Positions 11,527-49,274 of a stretch of 53,430 bases of DNA are shown one piece after another. How positions within the stretch are numbered: position 1 is the first letter of the stretch; every line of letters begins with the position of its first letter. The stretch is from a virus (taxonomy: Duplodnaviria; Caudoviricetes): the IMG/VR virus record IMGVR_UViG_3300042312_000048, positions 1 to 53,430 of that record. The stretch is one strand, 5' to 3'. A program made the translations under genes and the position numbers. The notes beneath the pieces were generated by a model. It did no database searches. It was not told where the DNA came from and saw only the letters and a program-made list of their open reading frames with translations.

Positions 11527-11546
11527 CTTTTACCTATACCCTTTAA

Positions 11547-15605: not shown

Positions 15606-15630
15606 GATTGCCAATCTCCGTTAGTATTAT

Positions 15631-15638
15631 TATTTATC
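15631..15638 (-). promoter_or_regulatory. T4-type late promoter box GATAAATA
   Basis: Intergenic, upstream of ATG 15605. Confidence 0.7.
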
Positions 15639-15644
15639 AAACTT

Positions 15645-18600
15645 TTACTCTTTATAGCGTGTGACGCACATTTTATGTACCATCAAGTTCGCTGTCTGAG
15701 GGCTTAGTTTCAATTGAACTGTCGCTGGAGTAATTATATTTCCTGCGTCATAGCTAACTGTAAAGTCCCCTATATACCCATTTACCGGTAATGTTGAATA
15801 TTCAACATAATTTACAACATTACCAAAAACAACTGTAGAAATTTTTACTAGATTTCTTATACCAGCACCATTATCTGTAGATATAATGATCAAATCTAAC
15901 CCCGCCAAATCATCTGCCTCTATGCTTAATATCGTTTGATTTGGGGTATCACTAATAGTGGTAGCAAAGTAAACATTACTATGACTAAATTCATAGATGC
16001 CCGCGCCTATAGTCAATGAGTTGGCTATCAAATTTCCTGCAATTTGAACATTGCTAGTATTTTCATTAAAAGTGAAGAATGCACTACCAGCAAATGTTCC
16101 ATTATCGTTATACTGAACCTGTGTGTTACTTCCGCCTGGGTTGCCGTTTCCACCGCCACCACCTGCTGTCCAGTATAAGTTGGCATTTCCGTCAGTCGCT
16201 AGAACATAACCGTTTATGCCGCCCGAAATATGAAGATTAGAAATGCTTCCTAAATTTACATTGCTTGAGCCGGCACTATTGAATTTGCCATTGATCGTTA
16301 ATGTTCCAGAACCGCTTACGATAGCAGTATTACTAAAGTTTGCCGTGCCTGTAACATTTAGATTAGTCGTGCCTATCGTACCAGGTGTTGTGATATTTCC
16401 TGCATTAAACGTATTAGTGACTGACAGGTTACTTGTATTGATATTTCCACTGACAGTCAATGATGTTAACGTGCCTACGCTGGTGATGTTTGGTTGTGCA
16501 TTATCACGAACGGTAGCGGCTGTTTCTACTCCTAGATTTGCTACAGGTGTTGTACTTGTTACCTGTAAAGGCGCAGTACCGGTCGCTATATTAGAAATAA
16601 AGATAGGTGTTGTTATTACGCTTGATACGTTTATATTTCCACCTACAAACAACGTGTCTGAATTTTTGTTCCAAGTAAATGTATTGTCGCCGCCGAAACT
16701 TCCGTTATCATTAAATTGTATATAAGTGTTTAATCCGCCAGGCGTAGTAGCATTTGATGCTGCTTGTTCTATCCAACTTAAATTACCAGTACCATCTGTA
16801 CTTAACACGTAGTTAGCATTACCGCCTAATATCTTAACATTACCGGCATTGCCTAAATTACTTTCACCTATTACTGTTAAGTCTGTCAAATTTCCTAAAC
16901 TTGTTATGTTAGGTTGTGCAGCAGTATCTATAATACCGATAAGCAATTCTGCCTGTACATAATTGCCTGCATTTAGATTACCAGTAATGTTAATATCACT
17001 AGAGCCGCCTATACCGTTTATTGAACCATTGAATGTGATATTACCATTACTATTTGGCTGTGCGGTATCAACATTTAACCAACCTACATTACCTAGATAA
17101 TGTATGTTTAGTTGTGAGTTAGTAGTTAAGGTTCCAGATAAGAAATTTGCAGATACTAAATTACCGCCAGATATATTTCCTGCACTGATATTGCCTGAGG
17201 CAGTGATAGTTGTTGCATTCGCATTTGTAGTAATAAAATTAGTAGTTAAGAGATTACTTGTAACTGTAGTATTACCATTAACAGTTAATTGTGCAGTAAA
17301 ATCGTTCCAAGTTAAACTTGGGCTACCACCAAAAGAACCTGCATTGTTAAATTGAATTTGTGTATTGCTACCACCTGGTGTGCCGTTTCCACCGCCACCT
17401 GATTGTGCTATCCAAGAAAGATTTCCAATTCCATCAGTAGAAAGGACATAACCATTTATGCCGCCTAATATTTTTACATTACCTACATTTCCTAAATTTG
17501 AATTTCCCTCAACTGTAAGTGAAACTAAATTGCCTAGACTTGTTATACTAGGCTGCGCTGCGGTTGCGATTTCGCCTATCAACAATTCGGCTTGTACATA
17601 ATTTCCTGCATTTAAATTGCCGGTAATATTAATATCACTTGAAGGACCATTACCTAAAATGCTTCCGTTAAAAGTGATGTTACCGTTACTTCCTGCTAAG
17701 CCTGTTTGAACATTTAGCCAACCTATATTACCTAAAAAGTTAACGTTAGGTTGCGCATTTGTAGTCAGTGTGCCTGATAAAAAGTTTGCTGATGCTAAAT
17801 TACCTAAATTTGCATTGGCTCCGCTTATATTACCTGCAACAGTTAAATTTGTTAGCACGCCTACTGTAGTGATGTTTGGCTGTAATCCAGTAGTCAAAGT
17901 ACCTAATATTAAATTAGCCCTTATATTACCGGTATTGGCATAGACATTTCCTGCTATGACATTACCTAATGTGGTAAAACTGCTTTCTACTGTGAAATTA
18001 TTAGCAAATAAGTTTGTAGTATTAGTTACACCTAAATTAGTATTACCTGATACTGATAGAGTTGTCAACGTTCCTAATGAAGTGATGTTAGGTTGAGATG
18101 CTAAAGTAACGTTTCTAGCAAGATTAGCAAGACCGTATAAATTTCCTGTAAAGAAATTGGCAGTAACATTATTGCCTAATGTAGTGTTTCCTATAACAAC
18201 TAAATTAGTTAGATTGCCTACAGTAGTAATATTAGGTTGAGATGCAACAGTTACATTTCCTGCATATGCAGCAAAGTTAGCATTAGCAACAGTGCCTACA
18301 ACATTAGAACCTACTATACCAAATAATGAACTACCGTTGCCTGCAAATAAATTTGCATTTATAACATTTGCATTAGTTATATTACCTGCAAGATTTAAAC
18401 TTGTTAATGTACCTACACTTGTAATATTCGGTTGAGCATTGCCTGATACTGTAATTGCTATATTTGAGTTTGCTGCTTGTGCTACATTAGTAATGTTTGA
18501 TCCATCACCATATAGATAATTTGCCAAGACTACATTAGCAGTCACATCCCAATTTAGTACGATGTAATCCGCGACTATATTGCCTGTCGTTAATGTATTT

Positions 18601-19118
18601 GTAATCTTATTATATGTGAAGCCAGCATTACCACCGAATGCTCCTGCATCATTAAACTGTACTTGAGTGTTGGCTCCGCCCGGTGTACCATTACCCCCGT
18701 TACCTGTAGCAGCGGCCCATGTTAAATTACCTGCACCGTCGGTCTGTAAGAAGTATCCATTAGTTCCACCTAGGATAATAACATTTGCTACATTGCCTAA
18801 ATTAGCACTAGTTCCTACTTGAATTTTTGTAACTGTTAATAAATTAGTTGCGCTATTAAACGTAAACGCTGAACTTGCACCAAAATTACCGTTATTGTTA
18901 TATTGTACTTGTGTATTGCTACCGGATGCTACTGCGTTTGGTGTAAATGGCAATCCATTCGCATAGAAATATCCATTAGCAAATACACGATTTGCAGTTA
19001 CATTGCTGTTAGGTGCATTAACATTATTGACAACATTACCGGTTTCATCAATAACAAGTTCTGGTGGTATTCCTACACTAAAACCACCTAACGCATTAAA
19101 AGGATCAACGTGTGACAT
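15645..19118 (-). CDS. Fibre-like virion structural protein (1157 aa)
   Basis: N-terminal FNALGGFSVG; repeated GG.NGY.L.TDG.GNL.W + PGGSNTQ.QFN..G.FGG modules and AQPNITS repeats. Confidence 0.85.
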   Translation of the reverse strand: MSHVDPFNALGGFSVGIPPELVIDETGNVVNNVNAPNSNVTANRVFANGYFYANGLPFTPNAVASGSNTQVQYNNNGNFGASSAFTFNSATNLLTVTKIQVGTSANLGNVANVIILGGTNGYFLQTDGAGNLTWAAATGNGGNGTPGGANTQVQFNDAGAFGGNAGFTYNKITNTLTTGNIVADYIVLNWDVTANVVLANYLYGDGSNITNVAQAANSNIAITVSGNAQPNITSVGTLTSLNLAGNITNANVINANLFAGNGSSLFGIVGSNVVGTVANANFAAYAGNVTVASQPNITTVGNLTNLVVIGNTTLGNNVTANFFTGNLYGLANLARNVTLASQPNITSLGTLTTLSVSGNTNLGVTNTTNLFANNFTVESSFTTLGNVIAGNVYANTGNIRANLILGTLTTGLQPNITTVGVLTNLTVAGNISGANANLGNLASANFLSGTLTTNAQPNVNFLGNIGWLNVQTGLAGSNGNITFNGSILGNGPSSDINITGNLNAGNYVQAELLIGEIATAAQPSITSLGNLVSLTVEGNSNLGNVGNVKILGGINGYVLSTDGIGNLSWIAQSGGGGNGTPGGSNTQIQFNNAGSFGGSPSLTWNDFTAQLTVNGNTTVTSNLLTTNFITTNANATTITASGNISAGNISGGNLVSANFLSGTLTTNSQLNIHYLGNVGWLNVDTAQPNSNGNITFNGSINGIGGSSDINITGNLNAGNYVQAELLIGIIDTAAQPNITSLGNLTDLTVIGESNLGNAGNVKILGGNANYVLSTDGTGNLSWIEQAASNATTPGGLNTYIQFNDNGSFGGDNTFTWNKNSDTLFVGGNINVSSVITTPIFISNIATGTAPLQVTSTTPVANLGVETAATVRDNAQPNITSVGTLTSLTVSGNINTSNLSVTNTFNAGNITTPGTIGTTNLNVTGTANFSNTAIVSGSGTLTINGKFNSAGSSNVNLGSISNLHISGGINGYVLATDGNANLYWTAGGGGGNGNPGGSNTQVQYNDNGTFAGSAFFTFNENTSNVQIAGNLIANSLTIGAGIYEFSHSNVYFATTISDTPNQTILSIEADDLAGLDLIIISTDNGAGIRNLVKISTVVFGNVVNYVEYSTLPVNGYIGDFTVSYDAGNIITPATVQLKLSPQTANLMVHKMCVTRYKE
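16690..17790. repeat. Internal duplication with 639-bp (213-codon) period
   Basis: SDINITGNLNAGNYVQAELLIG and flanking ~150 aa occur twice; matching DNA at 16956 and 17595. Boundaries approximate. Confidence 0.85.
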
Positions 19119-25521: not shown

Positions 25522-25529
25522 TATTTATA
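25522..25529 (-). promoter_or_regulatory. T4 late promoter TATAAATA
   Basis: Exact consensus between tape measure stop and portal start. Confidence 0.8.
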
Positions 25530-25530
25530 G

Positions 25531-28500
25531 TTAAACTTGACTATGACGCAATATCTTGTGACTAGTTTGATTACCCGTATCAAGTTTTAATATTACTTCA
25601 TCTAATTTACTTGTCAATACTTTAGCGATCATCTCATTCGCTCTAATTAAATCATCTTTTAGAGTTGTAGCAGAGATATTTTCGGACTCTTGTTGAGCAG
25701 TTTTAGTTTCTGAAGCAAATTGATCTGAACCCTTTTTTCCTAATTCTGCTAATAAACTATCAGGTGATAGTGGAATCACCATTTCATTACCGTGAAGCAT
25801 AGCAGGGAAACCTGATTTAGGTCCGCGTACAATACCTCCCATATCTAAACTAGGTAGTTCTTGTTTAGGAATCTCAGCGTGGAAATGTTTTCCTTCTGTT
25901 GAAGAAGTAGGATAATTGTACTCATCTTTAACAGTACCAAACCCTATACCCTTAAGGATGTTAATTATCTTTGCTGATTGCTCAGGTGTAGGTGCTTTGT
26001 TTAAGGTAAAATCAACAGCACGACCATCTTTGTGTGCGGTATTATTAAAGTTAAGTGCGTGATAATAATCATTTAAAGCAGTTATATGTTGTAGAGTTAA
26101 ATCTCCGAAATCAGCCTGTTGTAGTTTTACAATACCGTCTAATAATTTTGGATCAAGACCGTAACCTTCTCCGTGAGTGTCTCTAGTTTTTGAATCTGCA
26201 TCATCAGCAAATTTTCTTCCTCTAGCGTTAGTCCTGATGTTTGTTGGAATTTCTTGAGGGCCACGCAAATATTTAGGATCAATAACACCTGTATCAATTA
26301 ATTTAGCGAGTGATGTTGGTACTGCACCTTGTCTTAAAGTAGGTGTAGCAATCTTGCTTGCGACCATTGCAGGAGTTTCTGCTTGTAATCTACCAGAATT
26401 CACTAATTCTGCTATATTAGGTCCTTGTGGTTGTGTTTCTGATTCAGGTGTGACGACTGGTGCTTCGGGTGTTGTAGTTCCAGCAGTTGAACCTGGAGGT
26501 ACAGACAATCTTGCTTGGTTAGCGACCTTATCAATTATTGTATCTAATGTTTTTGTATCTAACTTGCCTACGTTTTTTGTACCTGCACTATCTAATGCAA
26601 GCATAACTTTTGGTCGTAACGAACGGGCTCTATTATTTGATTGTCTGATAAATCCTGCAATTTTACCGACCAAAGATGCATTCAGTTCTAATGTTGTACC
26701 TAAATTTGTTTGGACATTGATAGGTTGAAAATTGATTTCAGTTTGAGTAGTTCTATCTTGCTCTACATTAGTAGTAGGTGGTGCTGCCTGTTGTGTAGTT
26801 TGCTGTTGTTGTGGTGCAGTAGTTTGCTGTGTAGCCGGTTGTTGCTGTTGTGGTGCAGTAGTTTGCTGTGTAGCCGGTTGTTGCTGTTGTGGCGCAGTAG
26901 TTTGCTGTGTAGCCGGTTGTTGCTGTTGTGGCGCAGTAGTTTGCTGTGTAGCCGGTTGTTGCTGTTGTGGCGCAGTAGTTTGCTGTGTAGCCGGTTGTTG
27001 CTGTTGTGGCGTTACCGGTCTAGCAGTATTTTCCCCTCGACGTAAAATTTCACTACCAACTGGTGCTGCAGGTGTGCTTGATTCTCTAGACTTTTGAGGG
27101 TCGCTTACATTTTGTTGAGATACAATATTATTTTGTGCAAGTTCTTTAAATCTTTTTGCTTCTTCGCTGACATTTATTCCGAATAATCCAAGAATTTTTT
27201 CAACATCATCAGCTATTGAACCTAAGAAGTTGACAGCAGCCTGATCAGATTTTGCAATATTATCTAATGTACCTATAATTTTATTGGCATTATCAATCTC
27301 AGTTGTGGGTGCTGCTTGTCTTTTTGCTTCTTCTGTCGCAACAGGAGATTGAGTATTAATATCAAAATCTTGTACAAAAGGATTTACAACGTTTTGTAAT
27401 TTGTCGGTTGCTTGTCCTAATGCTACTGCTGCTTCTTGTAATGATGATGCAATTTTACTTGCGCTATCTGCACCGCTTGTCATTGCTGACGCTATTTGTT
27501 GGGCAGCTTCTGAACGCAATTGAGCTCTATCTTCGGGTTGACGAGCATATTGTTTCATCGCATCTGACGGGAATAATTGATTTCTTAGTTGTTCATTTAA
27601 TAATGCCGCAGGACCTACAGTAGTTGCTAATTGCCCTAAACGACCTCCCGGTTCATACATTTCTTTAGCAAGTAGATCAGCAAACACTTTTGCTTGATCT
27701 TCAGGTGCAAGTAATGCACCTGTTTCTTTATCTCTAGCATTTCTTGCTTGTTCTGCTAATTCTGGTATTACTTGAGCCGCACCAGACATGAACATCTGCA
27801 AGTTGTCTTTGCCCAACACACCTGTTGTTAATAATTCTTTGACACCTTTTTGTAATCCGGCAGGTAAAACTGACAACTGATCAACGACAGCATTTCTGAA
27901 TTTTAATTCATCTTCTAATCTTTGTGCTTCTCTACGTAATTGTTCAGCTTCTCTTGCTGATTCAGGAGTGCCTTCTTTATCTTTCTGTTCAGCCTGCTGT
28001 CTTAATGCGTTAATTTCTTCTTGTTGCATTAAGTTTCTTAATTGTATGATAGGATCTTCTCTAGCAGCCCTCATACGTTTTTCAATAGTGCTGACTTCTT
28101 CTCCCGTTAATGCTGATAACTCATATAAATTTTTAATATATTCTAAACTTGCGGCCTGCAATTTGCTCATATTTGCATTTTGCATTCTTAGACTGATACC
28201 GGCAGCATCTTGGGCAGCAACGTAGTTGCCCTGATACTTCATCATTTCTTCTTGGAAGACGCCTATATTAGCAAATTGTTTTCTATTTTCGTTTCCAACT
28301 TGTACTAATTCAAAAAATGCTTTTTGTGCGTCTCCTGCACCGCGTCCTAATCCTAATAATGCAGGCCCTAGACTTGCAATAGGATTAATCATTCTGCTTA
28401 TAGTGTCAGAATGTAATCCCGCAGCATGTGCATAAGAGTAAAGTGAACTTGCTGTTTGTTGACCTACACCGCCTAATTTATTAAGGCTGTCTCTAGCACC

Positions 28501-28986
28501 TAATAAAGCCTGTGTTTGCCCTAAGAAAACATTTGCAAGTGAGCCAAATGCAGTAGCAAGGCCGGCAGCAGCTGCTGCCGGCAGTCCCAATCTTGCTGCT
28601 AACGTACCTAATGCCCCACCAACTGCACCTGCAGCACCGCTAAAATTGTTTAGACTTCCTGTTGAAGTAGCCATCGCAGATGCCGCTTGCCCAACTTGAT
28701 TCTTAAGTGTTTGCGCGGATTGTGCTATGGACGCATTATTTTGTGCAATTTGTTGTGCAGCTTGCTGCTGTGCAGAAGCAACCGACATTGATGAAGATAC
28801 TATGTTTTGTCCGGCTGCTTGAAAATTTTGTCCTGCAGTTCTTGCTGATTGCGAGGAGTTTAATACCTGACCATTTAGATTATTAAGACTACTTCCAACG
28901 ATTCCGGTACTATTGGCTAATCCATTAACTGATTGTTGTAAAGCATTTATAGCATTCTGTAGATTATCAATATCTTGTGGGGTCAT
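25531..28986 (-). CDS. Tape measure-like protein with C-terminal M15/LAS-type metallopeptidase motif
   Basis: Ala/Gln-rich helical N-region, hydrophobic Gly/Ala segment, H-x6-D (HKDGRAVD) and HxH (HFH), GGIV.GPKSG.P..LHG.E.VIPL motif; adjacent to tail chaperone genes. Confidence 0.78.
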   Translation of the reverse strand: MTPQDIDNLQNAINALQQSVNGLANSTGIVGSSLNNLNGQVLNSSQSARTAGQNFQAAGQNIVSSSMSVASAQQQAAQQIAQNNASIAQSAQTLKNQVGQAASAMATSTGSLNNFSGAAGAVGGALGTLAARLGLPAAAAAGLATAFGSLANVFLGQTQALLGARDSLNKLGGVGQQTASSLYSYAHAAGLHSDTISRMINPIASLGPALLGLGRGAGDAQKAFFELVQVGNENRKQFANIGVFQEEMMKYQGNYVAAQDAAGISLRMQNANMSKLQAASLEYIKNLYELSALTGEEVSTIEKRMRAAREDPIIQLRNLMQQEEINALRQQAEQKDKEGTPESAREAEQLRREAQRLEDELKFRNAVVDQLSVLPAGLQKGVKELLTTGVLGKDNLQMFMSGAAQVIPELAEQARNARDKETGALLAPEDQAKVFADLLAKEMYEPGGRLGQLATTVGPAALLNEQLRNQLFPSDAMKQYARQPEDRAQLRSEAAQQIASAMTSGADSASKIASSLQEAAVALGQATDKLQNVVNPFVQDFDINTQSPVATEEAKRQAAPTTEIDNANKIIGTLDNIAKSDQAAVNFLGSIADDVEKILGLFGINVSEEAKRFKELAQNNIVSQQNVSDPQKSRESSTPAAPVGSEILRRGENTARPVTPQQQQPATQQTTAPQQQQPATQQTTAPQQQQPATQQTTAPQQQQPATQQTTAPQQQQPATQQTTAPQQQQTTQQAAPPTTNVEQDRTTQTEINFQPINVQTNLGTTLELNASLVGKIAGFIRQSNNRARSLRPKVMLALDSAGTKNVGKLDTKTLDTIIDKVANQARLSVPPGSTAGTTTPEAPVVTPESETQPQGPNIAELVNSGRLQAETPAMVASKIATPTLRQGAVPTSLAKLIDTGVIDPKYLRGPQEIPTNIRTNARGRKFADDADSKTRDTHGEGYGLDPKLLDGIVKLQQADFGDLTLQHITALNDYYHALNFNNTAHKDGRAVDFTLNKAPTPEQSAKIINILKGIGFGTVKDEYNYPTSSTEGKHFHAEIPKQELPSLDMGGIVRGPKSGFPAMLHGNEMVIPLSPDSLLAELGKKGSDQFASETKTAQQESENISATTLKDDLIRANEMIAKVLTSKLDEVILKLDTGNQTSHKILRHSQV
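26812..27011. repeat. Five tandem near-identical 39-bp repeats encoding QQQQPATQQTTAP
   Basis: Unit tgg(t/c)gcagtagtttgctgtgtagccggttgttgctgttg at 26812, 26851, 26890, 26929, 26968; one variable position. Confidence 0.95.
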
Positions 28987-29009: not shown

Positions 29010-29032
29010 TATAAATAACTCTACTATTTATA
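29010..29032. promoter_or_regulatory. Palindromic pair of late promoters TATAAATA-N7-TATTTATA
   Basis: Exact consensus on + (29010-29017) and on - (29032-29025) between divergent tape measure and gp26-like genes. Confidence 0.8.
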
Positions 29033-29064: not shown

Positions 29065-29886
29065 ATGGATAATCCACTACGTCAACATTTTAGAAGACCA
29101 GCCGTTTATATCAAATTACCCAGCGCAGGAGTAGGATATACACAGGATGTCATTGACATGCCCAGTAACGGTGAGTTGCCGGTTTATCCTATGACCGCAT
29201 TAGATGAAATTGCATTACGCACACCTGACGCACTGTTTAATGGTGTTGCTGTTGCTGATGTAATCAAGAGTTGCGTACCTGCGATTAAAAACCCTATGCA
29301 ACTCATGGTAAGCGACTTAGATGCTATATTGATTGGTATCAGAAGCGCAGGTGGTCAAGATACTGTTGATATAACAACAGTTTGCCCCGGTTGTCAAAAT
29401 GAAGCAACATATGGTGTAAATCTGATGTCAATATTATCTACGATGAAGTTAGGTAATTATAATGAACCATTAAAACTTGATACGTTAGAAATTAAATTTA
29501 GACCAGTAACCTATATGCAGATGACAAATGCTGCTATTGGTCAGTTTGATTTACAAAAAGTTTTTAACCGTATTGAAAATATTCAAGACGAAAAAGAAAA
29601 AAGAGAAGCAACTCAAGAAGCAATCAAAATGGTAACAACGTTGACTATGAAAGTGATTAGCCAGTCAATTGAATTTGTTAGAACTCCTGAGGCTGTAGTC
29701 ACTGATACTGATCATATTAGCGAATTTCTAGAACATTGTGATGCTAATACCTATAATAAAATCAAAGACTATAACGCAAAATTAAAAGAAAGCACCGAAA
29801 TCAAACCGTTAAACATCACATGTACCGGATGTAATAAAGATTACAAACAACCCTTCACATTAAATTCATCCGATTTTTTCGGATGA
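29065..29886 (+). CDS. gp26: Baseplate hub assembly / tail assembly chaperone, gp26-like
   Basis: I.LPS, YPMTA.DE, D.DAIL..IR, two CxxC (CPGC, CTGC), terminal DFF; SD GAGG. Confidence 0.8.
   Translation: MDNPLRQHFRRPAVYIKLPSAGVGYTQDVIDMPSNGELPVYPMTALDEIALRTPDALFNGVAVADVIKSCVPAIKNPMQLMVSDLDAILIGIRSAGGQDTVDITTVCPGCQNEATYGVNLMSILSTMKLGNYNEPLKLDTLEIKFRPVTYMQMTNAAIGQFDLQKVFNRIENIQDEKEKREATQEAIKMVTTLTMKVISQSIEFVRTPEAVVTDTDHISEFLEHCDANTYNKIKDYNAKLKESTEIKPLNITCTGCNKDYKQPFTLNSSDFFG
29874..29880 (+). other. Candidate -1 ribosomal frameshift heptamer T TTT TTC
   Basis: X XXY YYZ register in gp26 frame (GAT TTT TTC GGA TGA); -1 frame continues CGG ATG into the next ORF; stem-loop follows. Confidence 0.65.
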
Positions 29887-30110
29887 CGCTTCTGGCTTCT
29901 TCCCCTGCAGAAGTCACGAAGTTAATCACAGATATGGAGAATGAAGTTAGGGGTATCAAAGAAGCAGCATTAGCCATGGCTTGGCATCTACGCGGAGGTG
30001 CCACATATGAAGATATATTGAATATGTCTGTCGACGAACGTAAAGCAATCAACAAAATTATTGAAGCACATATGGAAACAACTAAGAAGACCGGACTTAA
30101 TTATTTTTAA
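29883..30110 (+). CDS. gp51: gp51-like tail/baseplate assembly chaperone domain (possibly made as a frameshift fusion)
   Basis: W..RGG.TYEDI.NMS..ER..I pattern; in -1 frame relative to gp26; no SD. Confidence 0.7.
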   Translation: MTLLASSPAEVTKLITDMENEVRGIKEAALAMAWHLRGGATYEDILNMSVDERKAINKIIEAHMETTKKTGLNYF

Positions 30111-30155
30111 GTTGTCCTTCGGACAACACTTCACTCGCTATCGCTCGTTCAGTAT
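30111..30155 (-). other. Two strand-specific ssDNA-type hairpins (GAA triloop; tandem G-A mismatch stem), primosome-assembly-site-like
   Basis: Minus strand: ACT GA AC GA GC GATA GC GA GT GA AGT, then GTTGTCC GAA GGACAAC. Confidence 0.6.
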
Positions 30156-30179
30156 TTTAATTTTATAAGGATTTAGATT

Positions 30180-30518
30180 ATTTGCCGCTTTGAATCCATG
30201 GTAGTGCTATCACAGCACTACCATAAGTTGGATTTGCCTGCCCATCACCCATGTCGTTTGTTCCAATATATCTAGCCTGTTGTGCTGATACATCCTACCG
30301 GTTATACTGTAAAGTTTATGGACTGTAGTTGTAGACTCTCATCTACTATAACGCATGTTACATATCCGCAAAACGAAATAAGATATGTACTCATCGTGGG
30401 TTCGCAAACCTGTCGATTGCCCACTCGGTATGCGACACATATATAATGTGTCTTTACTCCAGATCCGCAGGTAACTAGTGTACTAGACTTGCTCAAGGAG
30501 AGCAGAGCATCCTCTGCC
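30180..30518 (-). ncRNA. Candidate ~340 nt structured non-coding RNA, family not recognised
   Basis: At least eight stems seen by eye, including 11 bp 30198-30208/30214-30224, 8 bp 30359-30366/30382-30389, 7 bp 30434-30440/30446-30452, 6 bp 30502-30507/30512-30517; G-U pairs favour minus strand; 3' end uncertain. Confidence 0.65.
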
Positions 30519-30524
30519 AAACAA

Positions 30525-30551
30525 ATTTTAGATTGTTGTAGAAATTGTCAA
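30525..30551 (-). promoter_or_regulatory. Candidate sigma70-type promoter TTGACA-N15-TAAAAT for the structured RNA
   Basis: -35 at 30551-30546, -10 at 30530-30525; predicted +1 is G30518, the first base of the first hairpin; 15-nt spacer is suboptimal. Confidence 0.5.
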
Positions 30552-31085
30552 AGTTTTAGTTGACGTGGTGTCTGGTGAGTTTGAAGAATATACTTTTAAT
30601 AAATCTGAGTTTAAATTGAAAAAATGGTTGAATTCTATGATTAGCCAGTCTTTATGCTTTTTACTTGTGTAATATAAAAATTGATCAGTAATCCATGTTA
30701 ATTTAGTTTGTACGCAAACAAAACTGCCCTTTCTGTTAAATTTCATAAACAAAATGTTTAAATCATTTTCGTCGCTAACTTCCATCATTTGATCTAACCA
30801 ACTATCTAATACTTTACAATCTCCTGTTAATACAAGATGAAATGGAAAATCAGCGTATGACTTGCATTCTGCGTTAAATCTAGGAAAACTTTGTCCAGGA
30901 ACTATATCACCTTTGAAACTGCGTATCTGTCCCTCATGTAAGATTTGTGTCCTTACTTTATTTTTTCCGCCTACGTATGCACCGCTGCCCGGCGCACGTA
31001 TAAAACTCTCATTGTATTTTTCACTTAAAAATCTAGCGACTTCACGTTCCCAACTAGACCCTTTTTGTTTCTGTGGACTTGGCAT
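30528..31085 (-). CDS. Holliday junction resolvase-like nuclease, Hjc/PD-(D/E)XK family
   Basis: K.KG..WEREVA..L, R.PGSG, GDI, ECK motifs; downstream of gp47/gp46. Confidence 0.8.
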   Translation of the reverse strand: MPSPQKQKGSSWEREVARFLSEKYNESFIRAPGSGAYVGGKNKVRTQILHEGQIRSFKGDIVPGQSFPRFNAECKSYADFPFHLVLTGDCKVLDSWLDQMMEVSDENDLNILFMKFNRKGSFVCVQTKLTWITDQFLYYTSKKHKDWLIIEFNHFFNLNSDLLKVYSSNSPDTTSTKTLTISTTI

Positions 31086-31107: not shown

Positions 31108-32211
31108 TTAATTCGTTAAAAATCCTACAGCATAGGGTTCATCTACAAGAGAACTGTGACACTTGTGTTCACATTCTACCCATGCCTTTTTTGTATCATC
31201 AAAACTATTAAAGAGGTATTTCCAAACATCATCATTTAAAACTTCTTCTAATGATTTTGTTTTAATACAAACTTTATCTCTGTATACTTGATGAAAACTA
31301 TCTTTCCAATAAATTCTTTTACGCTCAGTTTCGTTATAGTCATAGGGAAAACTTACCCAACTGCATGGGTGTAGTACTCCATCAGCACTTACATATAAAC
31401 CGCGATTACCTATACTACACATAGGAGTTATAAATTTATTATGCTTACTTGACACTTCTTTATATAAATCATAATTTTTTTGCAGGTATGAATCGTTGTT
31501 TTGTTTTCTACCTGTGATATCTTTAAAATATCTTTCGTACCTATGTGTCTTGCTAATGAATTCGGCTCTAGGTTCTAATGGATCAGTATTACCACCGAAC
31601 GACTCGCCATACTTACTACCGAATTTCGTGCTATAAGTTAGTTGTAATCCGTCGCAACCCTTTTCTTTTGCTAGATTATAGATAGTATCTAAATGGTCTT
31701 GATTAAACGAAAATACAATAGTTGCCCAATAAACGAATGCAGGGCTTTCCTTACACATGATTTCCATACCAGTCATTATAGATTCCCAATCATTGTTGAC
31801 TCTGTATAGATCGTTAGATTTTTCATCATACCCATCTATACTAAAGTTTATGGTATCATACTCATTTGATAGTTTTGCGAATTTTCGCCACCAGTCTGGT
31901 TTTTTGTAACTTCCATTTGTTATAGTATAGATATGAATCTTTTCGTTATGACTTTTGATATACTCAATAATTTCAAGGTACTGTGAAGCATAAATCGGAT
32001 CTCCGATATCACCGCACATTGTGATTCTCTTTACTTCATTCTTAAGTAAGTCAGGAGTTAATGTATTCTCAAAAAACTTTAAATCAAGTTCATGATTAAA
32101 CCACGGTACACGATCTGTGTCATTTCTAGGACATCTAGGACATTGTAGCGTACATTTGCCGCTTACTTCAAAATGCCAATGATATAATTGCCATGGATAT
32201 TTTAAGTTCAT
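31108..32211 (-). CDS. Radical SAM enzyme with SPASM/twitch-like C-terminal cysteines
   Basis: CTLQCPRC (CxxxCxxC), GDP, TNG, FSIDG, C..G...YVSADG.LHPC, terminal CEHKC. Confidence 0.92.
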   Translation of the reverse strand: MNLKYPWQLYHWHFEVSGKCTLQCPRCPRNDTDRVPWFNHELDLKFFENTLTPDLLKNEVKRITMCGDIGDPIYASQYLEIIEYIKSHNEKIHIYTITNGSYKKPDWWRKFAKLSNEYDTINFSIDGYDEKSNDLYRVNNDWESIMTGMEIMCKESPAFVYWATIVFSFNQDHLDTIYNLAKEKGCDGLQLTYSTKFGSKYGESFGGNTDPLEPRAEFISKTHRYERYFKDITGRKQNNDSYLQKNYDLYKEVSSKHNKFITPMCSIGNRGLYVSADGVLHPCSWVSFPYDYNETERKRIYWKDSFHQVYRDKVCIKTKSLEEVLNDDVWKYLFNSFDDTKKAWVECEHKCHSSLVDEPYAVGFLTN

Positions 32212-32810
32212 GGACTTATCTCAATAAATTTTATATTGTCATCAAATAAGATTTTGATGATTTGTCCTGCAACATATTTGGCTGTTAGATGTTTATTTTG
32301 ATAAATGTCCTGATATCTTTCAGTATCATTTTTATATCTGTTTTTATTAAAATTTGTTTTAGTAAGACCTACACGAACCTCTAAAGTCCTTATATTAGGA
32401 TACTCTATTTGAAGCATACTATTAAAGTCTGACAATGATTTTTTAGTTAAACTATAAGTTAAATTATTAGGGTAATATCTTTTATTATTAGTGCTAGTAA
32501 TATTAACAATCTTACAATTTGAATTTTGTTTTAATACTTTTTGTGTCAGTAAGACAGGAGATAATAAGTTGGTATTTAAAATAGAAACGACATTATTTGG
32601 ATCATGGTTATCAAAAATTATCTTACCGCCTATATCTGTACCGGCCATGTTAATTAGTATATCAACCTCGGGCATGTCAAATTCTATAACGTCTTGTATA
32701 TTAGATAAGTCTAAAATATCCCGGGTGAGCGGTATAATCTCAAACTTGTCAAGACTATTGGTTAATTCTTTTCCAATACCGCTATTGGCACCCGTTATTG
32801 CTATTTTCAT
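32208..32810 (-). CDS. Short-chain dehydrogenase/reductase (SDR)
   Basis: TGANSGIG, INMAG, IVNITS, catalytic YSLTK. Confidence 0.92.
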   Translation of the reverse strand: MKIAITGANSGIGKELTNSLDKFEIIPLTRDILDLSNIQDVIEFDMPEVDILINMAGTDIGGKIIFDNHDPNNVVSILNTNLLSPVLLTQKVLKQNSNCKIVNITSTNNKRYYPNNLTYSLTKKSLSDFNSMLQIEYPNIRTLEVRVGLTKTNFNKNRYKNDTERYQDIYQNKHLTAKYVAGQIIKILFDDNIKFIEISP

Positions 32811-36624: not shown

Positions 36625-36669
36625 ATACACAGACATGCTATTTATACGTATCGTATTAGAGGTTTATTA

Positions 36670-38682: not shown

Positions 38683-41600
38683 ATGGCAATCGTTAATGTA
38701 AATGGGCCAGATGCAACAGTAAGAAGATGGCCTAAAAGTTCTGGCTCTAGCGAATTTGTTGATATTAATATATCCGGCACAGTCAATGATAAGACATTAA
38801 AACCAGAAATGACTGTAAGATTGCCCGGTGGAAAGACTATTACCGGAGACATTAATTATTGGAATAGTATAAAATCAGCAGGTGGTGTGCCCGGTCTTAA
38901 CGAAGAACAGTCATACTATATGACTCAGTTTTTAACACAGCCTACTCAAACAGTTAAAGACTCTAGCGGTTTTCCAGTAAAATTAAAAGGATTTCCTGCA
39001 CTAAAAGAAGTTTATTCTAGCGTAGATGAAACATTAAAAGAAAGAGAAAGAGAAGATACGCTACCAGGCACAAAAACATCTACAGAGGACTTAACATTAC
39101 CTGACGGTACTAAAGTCAAGACTACAACAGTGAACGAAGTTAGTGAGCCAAGAAATCCTGCAAGCGAAAATAATCCTACTCCACAGCCTTCAACAATAAA
39201 TCAAACACCCGGCGACAATGCTGACAAGAAACAAATAGTTGGGGCAGGAGACGACGATCAAAGTCCTAATAAACAAAATACAGTAGATGGTACTAATACC
39301 GGTAGCACAGTAGCCAAAGATGAATTTGGACTTCCTGTAGGTACTATTATTGATCCTACAGGATGGGGACCATCAGCAGGATCTTCTAACTCACAGACTG
39401 ATAGTTCGGGCAAACCTTCTGGAAGTAGACGCACCTACAATCCATTAGCGCAACTTTCTAGTTATTCTTATATTATAACACTGTATATGATAAGTCCAGA
39501 TGCTTACAAAGCATTTATTGATTCTGGTAGAAAAAAGATAGATGCATTATCTAAAGCAACTCCTGTAGGTGAAGGTAGTCCTAATGTTGAAGGAGGTGCA
39601 TTGATTGTTGCTAGAACAGGGGGCAACAACACAACAGACAGAATAGGCAACATGGATTATTTTATTGATAATTTAAGAATGAGTTCTTATATCAATACTA
39701 AAACTACAGGTGCGGCGATAGCGGCTGTGAGTGAAATTTCTTTTACAATTTCTGAACCATATGGTTTTAGATTTATAACTGATTTAAAAAATGCTGTAAA
39801 AAGATTGCAAGCACAATCAACATCGGCAAGTTATAAAAGCATGACATCATTGTTTAAACAATTTTTTATATTGGGTATAAAATATTATGGCTATGATGCA
39901 GATGGTAATTTGATAAAAGGCACAGATAAACTTTATGGAAATATGGTAGATCCATTAGGCGGCGATGGTTTATTTGAAAACTTTTATGATATACAAATAC
40001 AAGATTTTAGATTTAGATTAACAGGCGATACTGTGACTTATAATGTGACCGCAGCCGTTCCTGTGACACAGAATGTGTTAGGTGTTAAAAGAGGAAGAAT
40101 ACCGACAGGGGCAACAGTACAAGGTAAGACTGTTGAAGATGCATTGATAGGTGAGTATGGTCTTTTCACAAACCTAAATAAAAAAGAAGAGGATAAACTT
40201 AAAAACGGCAATGTGACTTATCCTAATAAATTTAGTGTTGTGTTCATGGGAGAAGCAGAACAGTTAATTAAAAAATCTCCGTTAGTGACATCAAATGATT
40301 TAGAGAAAGCAAGATTTGGTGATCCGTTATTGAACACGACTAAAGAAGTTAATGAAACACAAGCACAATCACCACCTGACACTACCTCAAGAATTTTATC
40401 TTTTGGTCATGATACCTCAATAATTTCTGCGATTGAAACAATCATAAAGAAAAGTGCTTATATGGTTGATGCATTAAACACACTTTATACTAATGCTAAA
40501 GAACCTAATCCTTCACAGAAAAATTATGAACAAATTAATCAAGAACCACAAACATTAAGGTGGTTTACAGTCACTAGCGATATTAAAAAAGTTGATTGGG
40601 ATCCTAAAACAAATGACTGGGCTTATGATTTAGTTTATATCATACAAGTTTATGATATACCTAGCATGGAGACTCCATATTATAGCACAACGTCAAAGTA
40701 TAGGGGCCCTCATAAACGTTATGACTATTGGTTTACAGGGCAGAATAGTGAAGTGCTTGATTTAGATTTTACATTAGATAATACATATTTTCTTTCTATC
40801 ATGGGTTTCCCTAATAAAAATACACAACCTTCTGCTTCAACACCGGGAAATAGAGAAACAAACACTGATCAAAGACAAACGACAGGTCCAGCGGCTGGCA
40901 ATGGAAACTCTACAGCGAATTCTACTGGACTAAAAAATGACCCGCAAGCCCCGAACAATCAAGGACCATCAGAAAAAAATGCTTCAGGTGGCGGCGAATT
41001 CTCTGTAGCACCGGGCATAGTTAATAACGCAGATAAAAGTTCATCATTAGGGGTTGGTCTAGAAGCAGAAAATACTGTAGCAACTTATCTATATGATCCT
41101 CAGGCATTCAGCACTGCCAGACTACAAATTATAGGAGATCCAGATTTTCTTGTAAGAGATTCAACTACAACTATTAATAGTTTGTATAATCAATATTATA
41201 ACACAGACGGATTTACACCTAATGCAAATGGCGGACAAGTATTTGTTGAGATAGGATTCAAAGAAGGTGTTGATTATAGAGATACTGATGGATTACTAAA
41301 CATAAACGATAATATTTTATTTTTAACATATCCCGATTACGTAAAAAAAATAAGTGAAAATAGAATCGTATACATGGTAGCCCAGGTTGACAGCCTATTC
41401 AACAGAGGTAGATTTACACAAACACTTAGTTTAGTACAGCCATACTTTCCAGGTAGTTCTACTGCACCGCCAACTGCGCCTGCTCAAAGCACGCCTGCAC
41501 AAAATCCAAATAACTCACAAACTGTGAGTGATACTAGCAAGGGAACTACTACTGCCAATGATGACGCACTACAAGAAGTTCAGGTCACTGGTAGAAGAGT

Positions 41601-41727
41601 CTCTCCTGCCCCTGCAAAAACTGAAGGCAGACAATCAGATAATCTAGCGAATAAGACTGATGCAGAGTTATTCACTTTAGGTTATATGCCTGATGAATTT
41701 GATAAAGTAAGAAATGGTGGTGGCTAA
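38683..41727 (+). CDS. Baseplate hub protein (gp27/VgrG-N-like) with disordered extensions
   Basis: Position between gp53 and gp5; F.I.EP.G, I.GDP and C-terminal Y.V..V...F..G.FTQTL.L hub-type motifs. Confidence 0.65.
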   Translation: MAIVNVNGPDATVRRWPKSSGSSEFVDINISGTVNDKTLKPEMTVRLPGGKTITGDINYWNSIKSAGGVPGLNEEQSYYMTQFLTQPTQTVKDSSGFPVKLKGFPALKEVYSSVDETLKEREREDTLPGTKTSTEDLTLPDGTKVKTTTVNEVSEPRNPASENNPTPQPSTINQTPGDNADKKQIVGAGDDDQSPNKQNTVDGTNTGSTVAKDEFGLPVGTIIDPTGWGPSAGSSNSQTDSSGKPSGSRRTYNPLAQLSSYSYIITLYMISPDAYKAFIDSGRKKIDALSKATPVGEGSPNVEGGALIVARTGGNNTTDRIGNMDYFIDNLRMSSYINTKTTGAAIAAVSEISFTISEPYGFRFITDLKNAVKRLQAQSTSASYKSMTSLFKQFFILGIKYYGYDADGNLIKGTDKLYGNMVDPLGGDGLFENFYDIQIQDFRFRLTGDTVTYNVTAAVPVTQNVLGVKRGRIPTGATVQGKTVEDALIGEYGLFTNLNKKEEDKLKNGNVTYPNKFSVVFMGEAEQLIKKSPLVTSNDLEKARFGDPLLNTTKEVNETQAQSPPDTTSRILSFGHDTSIISAIETIIKKSAYMVDALNTLYTNAKEPNPSQKNYEQINQEPQTLRWFTVTSDIKKVDWDPKTNDWAYDLVYIIQVYDIPSMETPYYSTTSKYRGPHKRYDYWFTGQNSEVLDLDFTLDNTYFLSIMGFPNKNTQPSASTPGNRETNTDQRQTTGPAAGNGNSTANSTGLKNDPQAPNNQGPSEKNASGGGEFSVAPGIVNNADKSSSLGVGLEAENTVATYLYDPQAFSTARLQIIGDPDFLVRDSTTTINSLYNQYYNTDGFTPNANGGQVFVEIGFKEGVDYRDTDGLLNINDNILFLTYPDYVKKISENRIVYMVAQVDSLFNRGRFTQTLSLVQPYFPGSSTAPPTAPAQSTPAQNPNNSQTVSDTSKGTTTANDDALQEVQVTGRRVSPAPAKTEGRQSDNLANKTDAELFTLGYMPDEFDKVRNGGG

Positions 41728-41729
41728 CA

Positions 41730-44700
41730 ATGGCAACTGACGTACAAAAAAGCAAAGGTAAATTAAAGCGCAGCAGCCCTACATCGGGCGGATCTAATCC
41801 TGAACTAGTACCTAAGATAGGCATCGTCAAAAATAATAGCGACAGCACACGTTCAGGACGCATTTGGGTTTATATATCAGACAACAGCGGCACAGACCCA
41901 GAAGATAGCACTTGTTGGAGACCTGTTTTCTTTTTAAGTCCTTTTTATGGCAAAACATTGAATACTGCGCCGAATACCGGCGAAGGCAATTTCAAAGGTA
42001 ACACACATAGTTATGGAATGTGGTTCAGTCCTCCAGACATAGGAACATCTGTATTATGTGTATTTGCTAATGGTGACTTAAATTTTGGTTATTACATAGG
42101 ATGCATACCAGATCCACAAGCATTACACATGGTACCGGCTATTGGATCTAGCACATACATCGTTCCGGGATCAGGCGAAGCAAACAAGTATGGCGGTGCA
42201 ACACGATTACCTGTAACGAACGTTAACAGTAGCAATAAAGAGATCACTAACACTGGTAAATATTTAACAGAAGCGAAACCAGTACACCGATATGTCGCTG
42301 CTACAATGTGGCAACAAGGCATTTTGCGCGATCCTATAAGGGGGCCTATAAGTTCAAGTTCACAGCGTGAAAATGCAAGTAGAGTGGGTTTTGGTATTAG
42401 CACTCCCGGAAGACCTATATATGAAGGCGGATTTAACGATACTAATATAGTTGATAATTTGACCCCAGATAAAGCCGATAGTTTAAAAATTATAGGTAGA
42501 AGAGCAGGTCATAGCATAGTGATGGATGATGGCGATGTTATCGGAAGAGATCAATTAATAAGATTACGCACAGCAGACGGTCACCAAATCACTATGAGTG
42601 ATGATGGTCAAACCATTTTTATTATTCATAAAAACGGACAAAGTTATGTTGAGCTAGGTAAAGAAGGCACAGTTGACATATACTCTACAAATAGTATTAA
42701 TCTACGAACACAAGGTGATTTAAACCTACACGCAGATAACAACTTAAACATACATGCAGGAAAAAACTTAAATATTTTTGCCGGCGAGGCAATGCATGTA
42801 CAAAGCACTAAAGAATTTAAGTTAAGGGCAGGAGCAGATTTAAGTATTTTCACAACATCTATTTTTACTGCTAAAGCATCTGGTGCTATGAGTTTAGAAA
42901 GTACAGGTGATATTAGTATGGCATCATCTGCAAAAGCCTTTGTGAATGGAAGTAGAGTCAACTTAAATTCAGGCAAAACAGGTACGACTCCTAAAGAAGT
43001 GCCTGCGATAGATCAAGTATTGCATACTGATACGTTGTTTGATAGTGCAAAGGGTTATGTAGCAGCGCCTGCAAAATTAAAGAGCGTAACTAGTAGAGCG
43101 CCGGCACATGCTCCATGGACAAACGCAGGTCAGGGTGTTGATATTAAGAGTAACTTAAATGCTGGTTCAAATTTACCAAGCAAACCAAATACTGCTACAA
43201 GTTCAATTAATACAGCAGCAAGAAACGGCGGAGTCACTAATCCAGTATCAAATGCTACGATTGCAAAAACTCCCGTCAAACAAAACATCAGTAATGCTAT
43301 TGATAAAAATGCGACTCAGGCGTTGTCCGCTCAAGTTGCTACAAATGCTGCTGCAGGTCCTGCAGCCGACGCAGTGAAAAAAGGTGCGACCCTTGTTCAA
43401 AATGCTACAGGCAATAGCACTGTTGCTATTGGACAATTTGCTCAAACACCAAAACAATTAGAACAAGCAGGTATATTAAAACCTGGTTCATCAAGCCTAG
43501 TTGATAGCCTTGTAGCATCAGGATCTAATATTGCCAATGCTATACCTAGTACTCTGTTTACAGGTAAACCAGGCGCAGAAAATCTGCCTGCGTTCATCAA
43601 TAATATAGGAGCACAGCAAGAATCGTTAGCAAAGAATTTACAGATTGCACAGACAAAATTACAAAATGCTGGTGCGATAACTGGTAATGAATCAAGTACT
43701 GAAATAGGTGGTGTGATATTATCTGCTGCAAATAACGGTGTAGACAACGTATTAGGATCAATGCAAACATCTAAATTGTCAGATTTCTTACCTGGTAGTG
43801 GTCCTAACATTCAGTCCTTTACTAACAAACTAGATCAAACATTAAAAGATGTCTCACAAGGAAATTTTGCTAGCAAACTAGGTGAATCTGCAGGCGGAGC
43901 ATTGGATGGTTTACAATCATCATTGAGTGCAATGTTTAAATCTTCTTTAGGAAATGCTAAACCAACATCACAAGGAACAGCAGCAGATGCATTCAGTGCT
44001 ATAGTAAGTTCTATACCGTCATTAGTACCAAACAAACCTCAAAATCTAACAGCAGAAGCAACTAAGTCAGCAGAAAAAACGACTGCTGCATCAGTTGGTA
44101 ATGAATCTCAAAATCTTGCACAGGGTTTATTTGGAGCAGCAACAAACATAGCAACAGACAAATTATCAAGTTCAGTAGCCAAAAAATTATCAGGGAACTC
44201 ATCCGATCCATTAGTTTCTGCTGTTGTGTTACCATTAACAAACAGTTTAGCGTCCTCACTGATCGAGGCTGCTAAGCCTAAAGCAAATGTTAATGTTGAC
44301 ACTAAAAATTCAGTTGCAACTTTAGCATTGGGTGTAACAGATCCTCAAACTGCTGCAAAAAATACAGCAGATAGCGTATCTGGAATTAAACAGGCAGCAC
44401 AAACTGTGGCATCCGGATTAATCTCAACAACTGCTGCTACATTGGCATCAGGTGTAAATAATTTGCCCGGCGGCCAAGACGCTGTGTCAACTGTCAATAA
44501 TTTAGCAAGTTTAACTCAAAACATTCCTAATACAAATGATTTGAAGGTTGCTATACAAAATGGGGCGACAGATGCCATCAATAACGCACAAAATACTTTA
44601 GGTAACAATCCTACACTACAATTAATAAATGCTACAGCAAGCGATGTTCAAGCGTTAGCAAGCAAAGATGGAATAGAACAATTGATTAGTGCCGGATTAC

Positions 44701-45320: not shown

Positions 45321-45323
45321 ATA
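45316..45323 (+). promoter_or_regulatory. Late promoter box CATAAATA
   Basis: Overlaps the gp5 stop, 5 nt before ATG 45329. Confidence 0.65.
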
Positions 45324-45328
45324 GTTTT

Positions 45329-45778
45329 ATGCCAGAATACATAGGTTTTACAACTTTAAACGCAAATAAACCCCAAACTGTAAATGCTCCTATAGGATAC
45401 CAAGGGGGTGTTGGCACTGTTAACGAAACTATTATACCCGGGAAAAAGTTTAGATTAACTGATGCACCCCTTGTTATACAGGATTTTGTTAATGCCTTGA
45501 ACATTAGAAGGGGAACGAAAGTAGGACAACCGCAGTATGGGACAGATTTATGGAATTTTATTTTTCAACCCAACGTTCCTGAAGTACAACAAGCCCTACA
45601 AGAAGAAATCATAAGAATAGCGGGGGCTGACCCTCGCATACAACTCAATTTTGTAAACGTATATCCTAAAGATAATGGAATATTACTTGAAGTTGAAATG
45701 GCTATCGTTCCTTTTAACCAAGCACGATTATTAAGTATCTTCTTTGATTCTAGCACGAATACAGCGTCATTGGCTTAA
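45329..45778 (+). CDS. gp25: Baseplate wedge subunit, gp25-like
   Basis: LTD..LV.QD..N.L.IR.G.K..QP.YGT.LW..IF.P and DPRI motifs. Confidence 0.88.
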   Translation: MPEYIGFTTLNANKPQTVNAPIGYQGGVGTVNETIIPGKKFRLTDAPLVIQDFVNALNIRRGTKVGQPQYGTDLWNFIFQPNVPEVQQALQEEIIRIAGADPRIQLNFVNVYPKDNGILLEVEMAIVPFNQARLLSIFFDSSTNTASLA

Positions 45779-45798
45779 AAAAGCAGTTTTTATTATTA

Positions 45799-45806
45799 GA
45801 TAAATA
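45799..45806 (+). promoter_or_regulatory. T4-type late promoter box GATAAATA
   Basis: Intergenic upstream of ATG 45824. Confidence 0.7.
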
Positions 45807-45823
45807 ATAAAACGAGATTTATT

Positions 45824-49267: not shown

Positions 49268-49274
49268 TAATAAA

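Follow-up and report, generated by a model that had tools for sequence, protein, structure and literature searches.

A conserved, structured candidate RNA class behind the resolvase gene of T4-like jumbo phages from lake water

Large RNAs with ribozyme-grade conservation are rare, and those found before (RNase P RNA, group I and group II introns, GOLLD, ROOL, OLE, and the omega and bridge RNAs) opened up biochemistry and tools. The element described here lies in a 53,430-nucleotide (nt) stretch of viral DNA, positions 1 to 53,430 of IMG/VR virus record IMGVR_UViG_3300042312_000048; this whole stretch, estimated at about 15% of the genome, is called the window below. The element occupies the gap between a resolvase gene and a gp51-like open reading frame (ORF), and is termed the gap RNA. 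By analogy, its closest known kind would be the large orphan RNAs GOLLD, ROOL, OLE and HEARO. Like the predicted gap RNA, these are long, multi-helix, pseudoknotted RNAs with many invariant unpaired nucleotides, often come from phages or lake metagenomes, and were discovered by covariation before their function was known. GOLLD and ROOL are longer than the roughly 340-nt gap RNA, which differs from all four in matching no Rfam model and in being tied to one syntenic site in one phage clade. The accessible text of Kretsch et al. (2025; PMC12286853) describes large ornate RNAs that form homo-oligomeric, RNA-only assemblies. In the gap RNA no palindromic loop hinting at self-association was noted, and an invariant CCAUGG lies half inside its 3' hairpin P10.

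Other described systems resemble it in part. RNase P RNA and group I intron cores are also 300-400 nt long, with a multi-way junction held by long-range pseudoknot helices and conservation concentrated in the joining strands, but the gap RNA has no match to their covariance models at E-values up to 10 and no exons. The omega RNAs of TnpB and IscB and the bridge RNA of IS110 are likewise structured RNAs placed directly downstream of a co-oriented nuclease gene (95 of 96 loci in our case), with two short arms that covary together. The gap RNA differs from them in lacking a mobile-element context, in adjoining only a small PDDEXK nuclease, in persisting where that nuclease gene has been replaced, and in having arms for which the 14-mers tested, apart from the RNA gene itself, have neither match nor complement in five large records of RNA-bearing phages. 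The R-loop primers of T4 ori(uvsY) and ori(34) and RNA II of ColE1 share with it a promoter-like site followed by a transcript with a G-rich strand, whereas no unwinding element or origin signal was found here in the window, and the gap RNA is missing from related cultured phages.

Covariation and predicted fold

The ORF-free gap covers 417 nt (30111-30527) between the stop codons of the two convergent genes. An annotation made earlier from the letters of the window alone (the sequence-only reading) had singled it out as the only long non-coding gap, less AT-rich than its flanks. Both statements were borne out: no other gap between ORFs of 90 amino acids (aa) or more exceeds about 110 nt, and the GC content is 0.395-0.41 in this gap against 0.275-0.34 in the neighbouring 200-nt segments. 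The same reading had called the gap highly structured, and its folding energy was matched by none of 100 shuffles on either strand (z = -3.12 for the minus strand, z = -3.92 for the plus strand).

Comparison was based on 204 loci. A search with the resolvase protein returned 251 relatives in viral contigs, the best 80 of 251 being taken as loci, and the gp26-like protein encoded nearby added four more; these 84 were reached through neighbouring proteins and were not chosen for the RNA. The remaining 120 came from an exact pattern of hairpin P10, which matched at least 120 further viral contigs. An nhmmer profile found one element in each of the 204 loci, with one match split into two pieces, and thus in all 84 of those gathered via neighbouring proteins. 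The main alignment was reduced from 179 full-length copies to 118 unique sequences and then to 104 representatives below 96% identity, to which the window was added (105 in total); core identity to the window among the representatives goes down to 55%, with a median of 63%. Two further alignments comprised 55 distinct gap sequences (A1) and, independently, 36 sequences of the 3' half (A2).

Mutual information over all column pairs, calculated with no prior assumption, placed the nested helices at the top together with two crossing helices, which would form pseudoknots. On the 105 representatives, the 103 modelled pairs are 89.8% canonical and 71 of them are compensatory, the kind of covariation that the sequence-only reading had proposed to look for in relatives. 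Helices P3, P4, P5, P6, P7 and P9 are 91-100% canonical, compared with 61-93% for shuffled partners and 7-52% after a one- or two-column slide of the partners. RNAalifold predicted 66 pairs on A1, and in 40 of these both partners have changed. In A2, 89.5% of modelled positions are paired versus 79.2 +/- 0.6 in shuffles, and 17 pairs have changed on both sides versus 10.1 +/- 1.2 (0 of 500 shuffles as good in either count), while slid-partner controls reach 21-54%. G-U pairs far outnumber A-C pairs (627 vs 184 overall; 426 vs 65 without the badly aligned H1 and P8), so the RNA corresponds to the minus strand and has the same orientation as the resolvase gene, in line with the strand assigned beforehand. 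Conservation is not limited to helices: of the 320 positions of the core, 91 reach 97% conservation or more, and the model leaves 37 of them without a partner, mostly in junction strands and internal loops.

The core spans about 340 nt (roughly 30518-30177), or about 410 nt to position 30111 if a G-A-rich hairpin and a terminal hairpin at the 3' side are included. It would begin with a 5' hairpin, followed by an irregular helix with invariant internal loops and by a four-way junction closed by UACCG/CGGUA. Two pseudoknots would tie the junction domain to the strand behind P9, and the 3' part would hold a sequence-invariant 10-bp hairpin between two covarying direct repeats. The parts are listed below in window coordinates; L150 is the one locus in which the resolvase gene has been replaced.

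30551-30546 and 30530-30525 (minus): promoter-like site read from the sequence, TTGACA, a 15-nt spacer and TAAAAT, the latter overlapping the resolvase stop codon
30529-30519 (minus): leader block AAAAUUUGUUU, directly before hairpin H1; stays with the RNA in L150
30518-30501 (minus): H1, variable 5' hairpin GGCAGAG/CUCUGCU; compensatory variants visible in A1
30500-30457 (minus): P2, invariant CUCC/GGAG helix with conserved internal loops (UUGA and GGAUCU) and a variable inner hairpin
30452-30434 (minus): P3, hairpin; 90.6% canonical vs 61% in shuffles, 6 of 7 pairs compensatory
30430-30296 (minus): four-way junction domain, closed by P4 and holding P5, P6, P7 and P8
30430-30426 with 30300-30296 (minus): P4, UACCG/CGGUA; 98.1% canonical, 3 of 5 pairs compensatory
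30424-30396 (minus): P5; 99.9% canonical, 6 compensatory pairs
30394-30355 (minus): P6; 96.5% canonical, 10 compensatory pairs
30376-30371 with 30259-30254 (minus): PK1, P6 loop with joining strand; six pairs, each canonical in 101-104 of 105
30352-30347 with 30306-30301 (minus): P7, enclosing P8 and a conserved 24-nt strand; 97.1% canonical, 3 compensatory pairs
30346-30331 (minus): P8, length-variable and badly aligned by MAFFT; folded singly, a hairpin in 104 of 105
30330-30307 (minus): conserved 24-nt strand ACUACAGUCCAUAAACUUUACAG, inside P7
30322-30320 with 30264-30262 (minus): PK2, pseudoknot of UCC with GGA
30293-30266 (minus): P9, hairpin; 91.7% canonical vs 62% in shuffles, 9 of 9 pairs compensatory
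30264-30254 (minus): conserved joining strand GGAACAAACGA, with the 3' strands of PK2 (30264-30262) and PK1 (30259-30254)
30244-30230 (minus): repeat A, GGGCAGGCAAAUCC; part of a G-rich patch marked by the sequence-only reading, covarying by identity with repeat B
30223-30199 (minus): P10, 10-bp hairpin UGGUAGUGCU...AGCACUACCA, then an invariant UGG; arms almost invariant, 99.1% canonical
30191-30177 (minus): repeat B, AAGCGGCAAAUAAUC; end of the strongly conserved core
30176-30151 (minus): A/U-rich variable linker; 26 nt here in the window, far longer in members whose gaps reach up to 580 nt
30153-30128 (minus): 3' hairpin ACU GA AC GA GC GAUA GC GA GU GA AGU, Watson-Crick steps alternating with tandem G-A/A-G
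30127-30111 (minus): terminal hairpin GUUGUCC-GAA-GGACAAC, abutting the gp51 stop codon

Both predicted pseudoknots and the junction-closing helix P4 are supported by covariation. Three of the P4 pairs occur as UA 62 / CG 19 / AU 5, AU 103 / GC 2 and CG 102 / UA 3, and PK1 includes pairs found as UA 67 / CG 31 / AU 4, GC 58 / AU 41 and CG 71 / UA 28. The three PK2 pairs vary as UA 69 / CG 14 / AU 9 / GC 7, CG 103 / UA 2 and CG 99 / UG 3 / UA 3; in A2 all three have changed on both sides and are 99.1% paired. In P2, the CUCC/GGAG helix is canonical in 105 of 105 sequences, and the inner pair 41-66 alternates between GC (84), AU (11) and GU (10). The MAFFT alignment is poor over H1; folded singly, a hairpin of at least 5 bp is present there in 100 of 104 members. 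RNAalifold on A1 and A2 paired CGGUAG differently, to the 3' arm of P10; this alternative was rejected on the evidence of locus L192, where CGGUAG has become CGAUCG together with its P4 partner and P10 is unchanged.

Several of the nested stems drawn in the sequence-only reading are kept across the family, namely CTCC/GGAG (P2), GTAGA/TCTAC (P8), ATATATC/GATACAT (P9) and the 11-bp stem (P10). Two others fared less well: CGCAT/ATGCG occurs only in close relatives of the window, the family using the P4 helix instead, and the AATCC/GGATT extension of the 11-bp stem is 68.1% canonical, compared with 67.7% in shuffles.

In hairpin P10 hardly any change is seen on either arm, a pattern more suggestive of sequence-specific recognition than of pairing alone; a G-U variant (A to G) on the minus strand occurs in 4 of 36 sequences in A2. 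It is flanked by A and B, direct repeats that covary by identity and not by complementarity. The strongest non-Watson-Crick signal of the whole alignment falls at positions 292/345 (GG 66 / UU 17 / CC 8), and in divergent members A and B have 6-9-nt words in common that differ from the consensus. This identity covariation suggests that both segments may meet the same partner, alternately or as two copies. No partner strand was found inside the RNA by exact-complement search, and duplex energies of self- versus cross-pairing gave gains of at most 1.5 kcal/mol, the largest for each repeat against itself. The 7-mer GGCAAAT is not enriched in the window (10 vs 10.1 expected). Two 14-mers (arm A, identical in records G002 and G004, and arm B of G005) matched only the RNA gene itself in the five large records, in a search of both strands with up to one mismatch that covered phage records only and not shorter, wobble-paired or host targets. 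In the window the 5' leader could pair with A or B, but by visual inspection relatives do not preserve this pairing, and the idea was set aside.

Behind the core, the four Watson-Crick pairs tested in the G-A hairpin are 94.2% canonical and all four are compensatory (e.g., AU 54 / GC 34 / GU 12), with a minus-strand preference (G-U 33 vs A-C 13). This hairpin may serve to bind a protein or constitute a small RNA of its own. The terminal hairpin, 98.8% canonical with 7 of 7 pairs compensatory, folds equally well on both strands since G-U and A-C pairs are equally frequent (7 each), and is probably a two-way terminator. In relatives with 500-580-nt gaps (e.g., L055, L061, L067; A1 columns ~510-530 and 660-690), an extra conserved motif, GATAAATGAAYAGTTACGG, follows the terminal hairpin. 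The TTACGG within this motif is able to pair with ACCGTAA, which is conserved ahead of the G-A hairpin, so that the longer-gap relatives may have an additional 3' domain missing from the window.

Distribution and known families

Three genes lie at or near the gap, identified by protein comparison with PHROGs and Pfam.

29065-29886 (plus): gp26-like hub protein
29883-30110 (plus): gp51-like ORF, 75 aa
30528-31085 (minus): PDDEXK/RusA-like resolvase, small and without an extra domain

This arrangement is nearly absolute. Both flanks could be placed in 77 loci, all with the resolvase, a gap of 404-580 nt, and gp51 on the opposite strand followed by gp26. Among the loci found by pattern, which were not selected for synteny, 95 of 96 have a co-oriented resolvase gene immediately before the RNA, which starts within a few nt of the resolvase stop codon, and in 100 of 100 gp51/gp26 follow on the other strand. 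The lone exception is L150, in which a SegE-type GIY-YIG homing-endonuclease gene (6718-7161, plus) replaces the resolvase; the RNA, its leader block and the rest of the synteny are intact. An additional DUF6071-family gene of ~250 aa sits between the RNA and gp51 in 5 of the 77 loci, representing three distinct gap sequences (L044/L045, L052 and L054; L044:5029-5817, L052:5056-5787 and L054:5052-5795, all minus).

The gap is better conserved than the neighbouring genes. In L015 it is 85.3% identical to the window at the nt level, against 46.7% aa identity for gp51 and 79.7% for the resolvase, and in L022 the gap is 92.1% identical against 52% for gp51. When five records of 259-525 kb were searched with a covariance model of the 3' half (R1), each proved to contain a single copy; the completeness of three of these records is rated at 100%. 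The RNA is thus a single-copy element, and it is confined to phages: the exact P10 pattern had no match in 185,579 prokaryote species genomes, although an exact pattern would miss diverged copies. DNA sequencing runs that hold the window stretch are lake-water metagenomes.

The window genes indicate a distant T4-like jumbo myovirus, and the T4-type portal protein that it encodes places Phosso, Atu_ph07, the PA5oct group and XaC1 as the closest cultured phages (50-53% aa identity). There is no gap behind the resolvase gene in the three cultured relatives compared, Phosso, PA5oct and SCTP-2, and R1 had no match in the same three genomes (best E 0.04, 14.6 bits). A blastn search of the gap against 50,697 phage records also returned no match.

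Comparison with Rfam 15 (4227 covariance models, in gathering-threshold and E-value modes) gave no match in the whole window at the gathering threshold. With E-values up to 10, region 30000-30700 produced only three hits, at 13.6-19.9 bits against thresholds of 45-120, and 11 other family members (30,213 nt) produced one unrelated hit (E 4.3) outside the RNA. The RNase P models had no match at E up to 10 in either set, ARAGORN found no tRNA or tmRNA genes in the window, and no group I or group II intron model matched; the element lies between two convergent stop codons with no flanking exons. The conserved sequence blocks of RNase P and of the group I intron were likewise not seen in the consensus. 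These results agree with the sequence-only reading, which had seen no hallmarks of tRNA, tmRNA, RNase P or introns and had proposed a new class of noncoding RNA. No description of the gap RNA was found in the accessible portions of the literature, including those of two jumbo-phage reviews. The accessible text of Fremin et al. (2023; PMC10690425) reports 8,495 unnamed structured-RNA candidates predicted from IMG/VR, and the gap RNA may be among them. On the strength of its covariation and the lack of a known-family match, we regard it as a candidate new RNA class to which no function is assigned.

An invariant CCUCCUU, paired to GGAG in P2, resembles the anti-Shine-Dalgarno end of 16S rRNA, which raised the idea of a link with the ribosomal protein bS21. 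This idea was dropped because bS21 genes are present both with the RNA (four of the five large RNA-bearing records, G001-G004) and without it (all three of the cultured relatives Phosso, PA5oct and SCTP-2); bS21 looks like a trait of the whole jumbo-phage group.

Candidate roles and alternative explanations

On balance, we favour a free-standing folded RNA that acts in trans, either as a ribozyme or as the core of a ribonucleoprotein (RNP). By analogy, a four-way junction with two pseudoknots and conserved unpaired positions would be the pattern of catalytic RNAs, RNP cores and aptamers, and appears unlike that of terminators, primers or antisense RNAs. A trans-acting role is suggested because the RNA is not upstream of a co-oriented gene and survives replacement of the gene upstream of it in L150. 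Specifically, it is not the leader of downstream genes, since the next gene is convergent and the minus-strand gene after it is preceded by a late promoter of its own, TATAAATA, at 29025-29032; no TATAAATA precedes the RNA. The same evidence speaks against placement as a riboswitch or other cis-acting leader.

The transcription, ends and activity of the gap RNA, which we infer, would be as follows. It lies at the 3' end of a recombination operon; its probable sources are the operon transcript, initiation at a weak -10-type site just before H1, or both. It would act during infection by the lake jumbo phage clade as a catalytic RNA or RNP core. The sequence-only reading had given it a host-type promoter of its own, and this holds in part. 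The site is present, with a spacer outside the 16-18-nt range of the promoter scan, which did not list it. In 103 relatives, conservation is confined to positions -12 to -1 before H1, an A/T-rich block followed by TTnGTTT that includes the -10-like element, and no position upstream of -12 exceeds 0.5 bit, so that the -35 element is unconserved. The leader block was also considered as a general phage promoter and rejected: AAWTTNGTTT occurs 9 times in the window vs 3.9 expected, and the other eight sites lie inside genes or ORFs. As for expression, small shares of the window stretch are present in six RNA runs. In the four that were compared, which come from four metatranscriptome studies, short contigs at a depth of 3-8 overlap parts of 30106-30435, and two of these runs also cover the resolvase gene. 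The metatranscriptome mapping suggested beforehand yielded contigs over the element, with DNA still a possible source.

Several points weigh against a free-standing, trans-acting RNA. The unconserved -35 makes an independent transcription unit putative; the RNA-library contigs show no strand, ends or level, and may be DNA carry-over; and a single-stranded DNA folding on the same strand would be compatible with the comparative data. Because synteny is near-absolute, the neighbouring genes say nothing about function; there is no hint of a particular substrate, ligand or protein; and a trans-acting role leaves the identity covariation of A and B unexplained. A bolder version of the idea, rather unlikely in our judgement, is a new natural ribozyme or nucleic-acid-positioning cofactor in which P10 and repeats A and B hold two copies of a partner or the two halves of a symmetric substrate. 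Such a substrate might, for example, be a nucleic acid in branched or paired form on which the RNA works jointly with the junction-resolving nuclease encoded next to it, and this would imply an RNA-assisted step in jumbo-phage DNA processing. As guide or bridge arms, the repeats have no target among the 14-mer matches, and the RNA is linked to the would-be effector in 95 of 96 loci and remains intact in L150 where that gene is replaced.

A cis-acting 3' element of the recombination operon, a structured 3' untranslated region that would shield the mRNA from 3' exonucleases, direct its processing and terminate transcription between the convergent units, is unlikely. In its favour, the RNA begins just past the resolvase stop, there is no conserved -35, and a hairpin that folds on both strands sits exactly at the gp51 stop. 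Neither protection nor termination, however, needs 91 near-invariant positions, two pseudoknots and a four-way junction; the RNA is unchanged in L150 behind a different gene, and cultured relatives with the same resolvase do without it. A sensing switch, in which a ligand or factor toggles the pairings and A and B compete for one strand to control 3' termination or availability of the RNA, would account for the identity covariation, as expected of strands competing for a common partner, and for the many aptamer-like invariant unpaired nucleotides. We consider it quite improbable, given that the RNA offers no common complementary partner or appreciable duplex gain (again at most 1.5 kcal/mol), that no co-oriented gene follows it before one with its own late promoter, and that ~340 nt exceeds, to our knowledge, most riboswitch aptamers.

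The sequence-only reading had preferred a replication primer, an RNA that would remain hybridised to its template, as at T4 oriF/oriG or in ColE1 RNA II, and prime leading-strand synthesis. The promoter-like site in the window, the partly conserved G-rich strand and the A/T-rich stretch behind the core would suit it, as would the position near hub genes 26/51, T4 oriF lying in uvsY near genes 25-26-51. This role is nonetheless unsupported. Invariant junction nucleotides and a double pseudoknot are more than a primer or an R-loop RNA requires, and we know of no T4- or ColE1-type primer that requires a conserved tertiary fold. With no origin feature found in the window (~15% of the genome), an A/T-rich linker of only 26 nt that varies widely in length, and no such element in cultured relatives of the same phage group, we think it very unlikely; the ribozyme or protein-binding RNA that had been named as its alternatives would fit the conservation better. 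Slighter still is the chance of a structure in single-stranded DNA or a protein site at the DNA level, such as the invariant inverted repeat GGTAGTGC...GCACTACC used for binding or cleavage, with no RNA function. The P10 arms are invariant rather than covarying, as in an operator, and G-T wobble would also be tolerated in single-stranded DNA; but no double-stranded DNA site is known to have pseudoknots and a covarying multi-helix fold spanning 340 nt, the strand asymmetry runs across all well-aligned helices, and family members occur, as weak evidence, in contigs from four RNA libraries. Finally, a decayed or very short protein-coding gene is barely credible. The gap does contain small ORFs of 54 aa and 72 aa, the latter a TTG ORF at 30302-30520 (minus), yet relatives share no gap ORF of the same position, strand or frame, neither of the two matches PHROGs or Pfam, and the substitutions are paired, not codon-like.

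The gap RNA is well suited to further study. It is plentiful in lake viromes, with no fewer than 204 loci and a single copy in genomes of up to 525 kb, its clear double-pseudoknot architecture lends itself to direct probing, cryo-EM and activity assays, and the identity covariation of A and B points to a specific, searchable partner. These giant T4-like phages keep the RNA gene as strictly as core structural genes, which would imply an RNA-dependent step in the infection cycle.

Genome setting

Upstream of the gap RNA on the minus strand lies an early/middle-type recombination operon of gp55 (late sigma factor-like), SbcCD-type gp47-like and gp46-like, short-chain dehydrogenase (SDR), radical SAM and resolvase genes. 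The radical SAM (367 aa) and SDR (200 aa) genes occupy 31108-32810 (minus), between the resolvase and the gp46/gp47-like genes, a placement that is unusual for a T4-like recombination operon.

The phage appears to use T4-type late promoters, because all four TATAAATA sites in the window (25522-25529 minus, 29010-29017 plus, 29025-29032 minus and 36639-36646 minus) are intergenic and sit just 5' of the portal, gp26-like, 1151-aa and gp55-like genes, the number of sites itself being not above chance (4 vs 7.3 expected). The 1151-aa ORF (25531-28986) has no Pfam or PHROG match. Very large ORFs, from 1014 to more than 1668 aa, are abundant on both sides of the window, at 1-19118 and 38683-53429.

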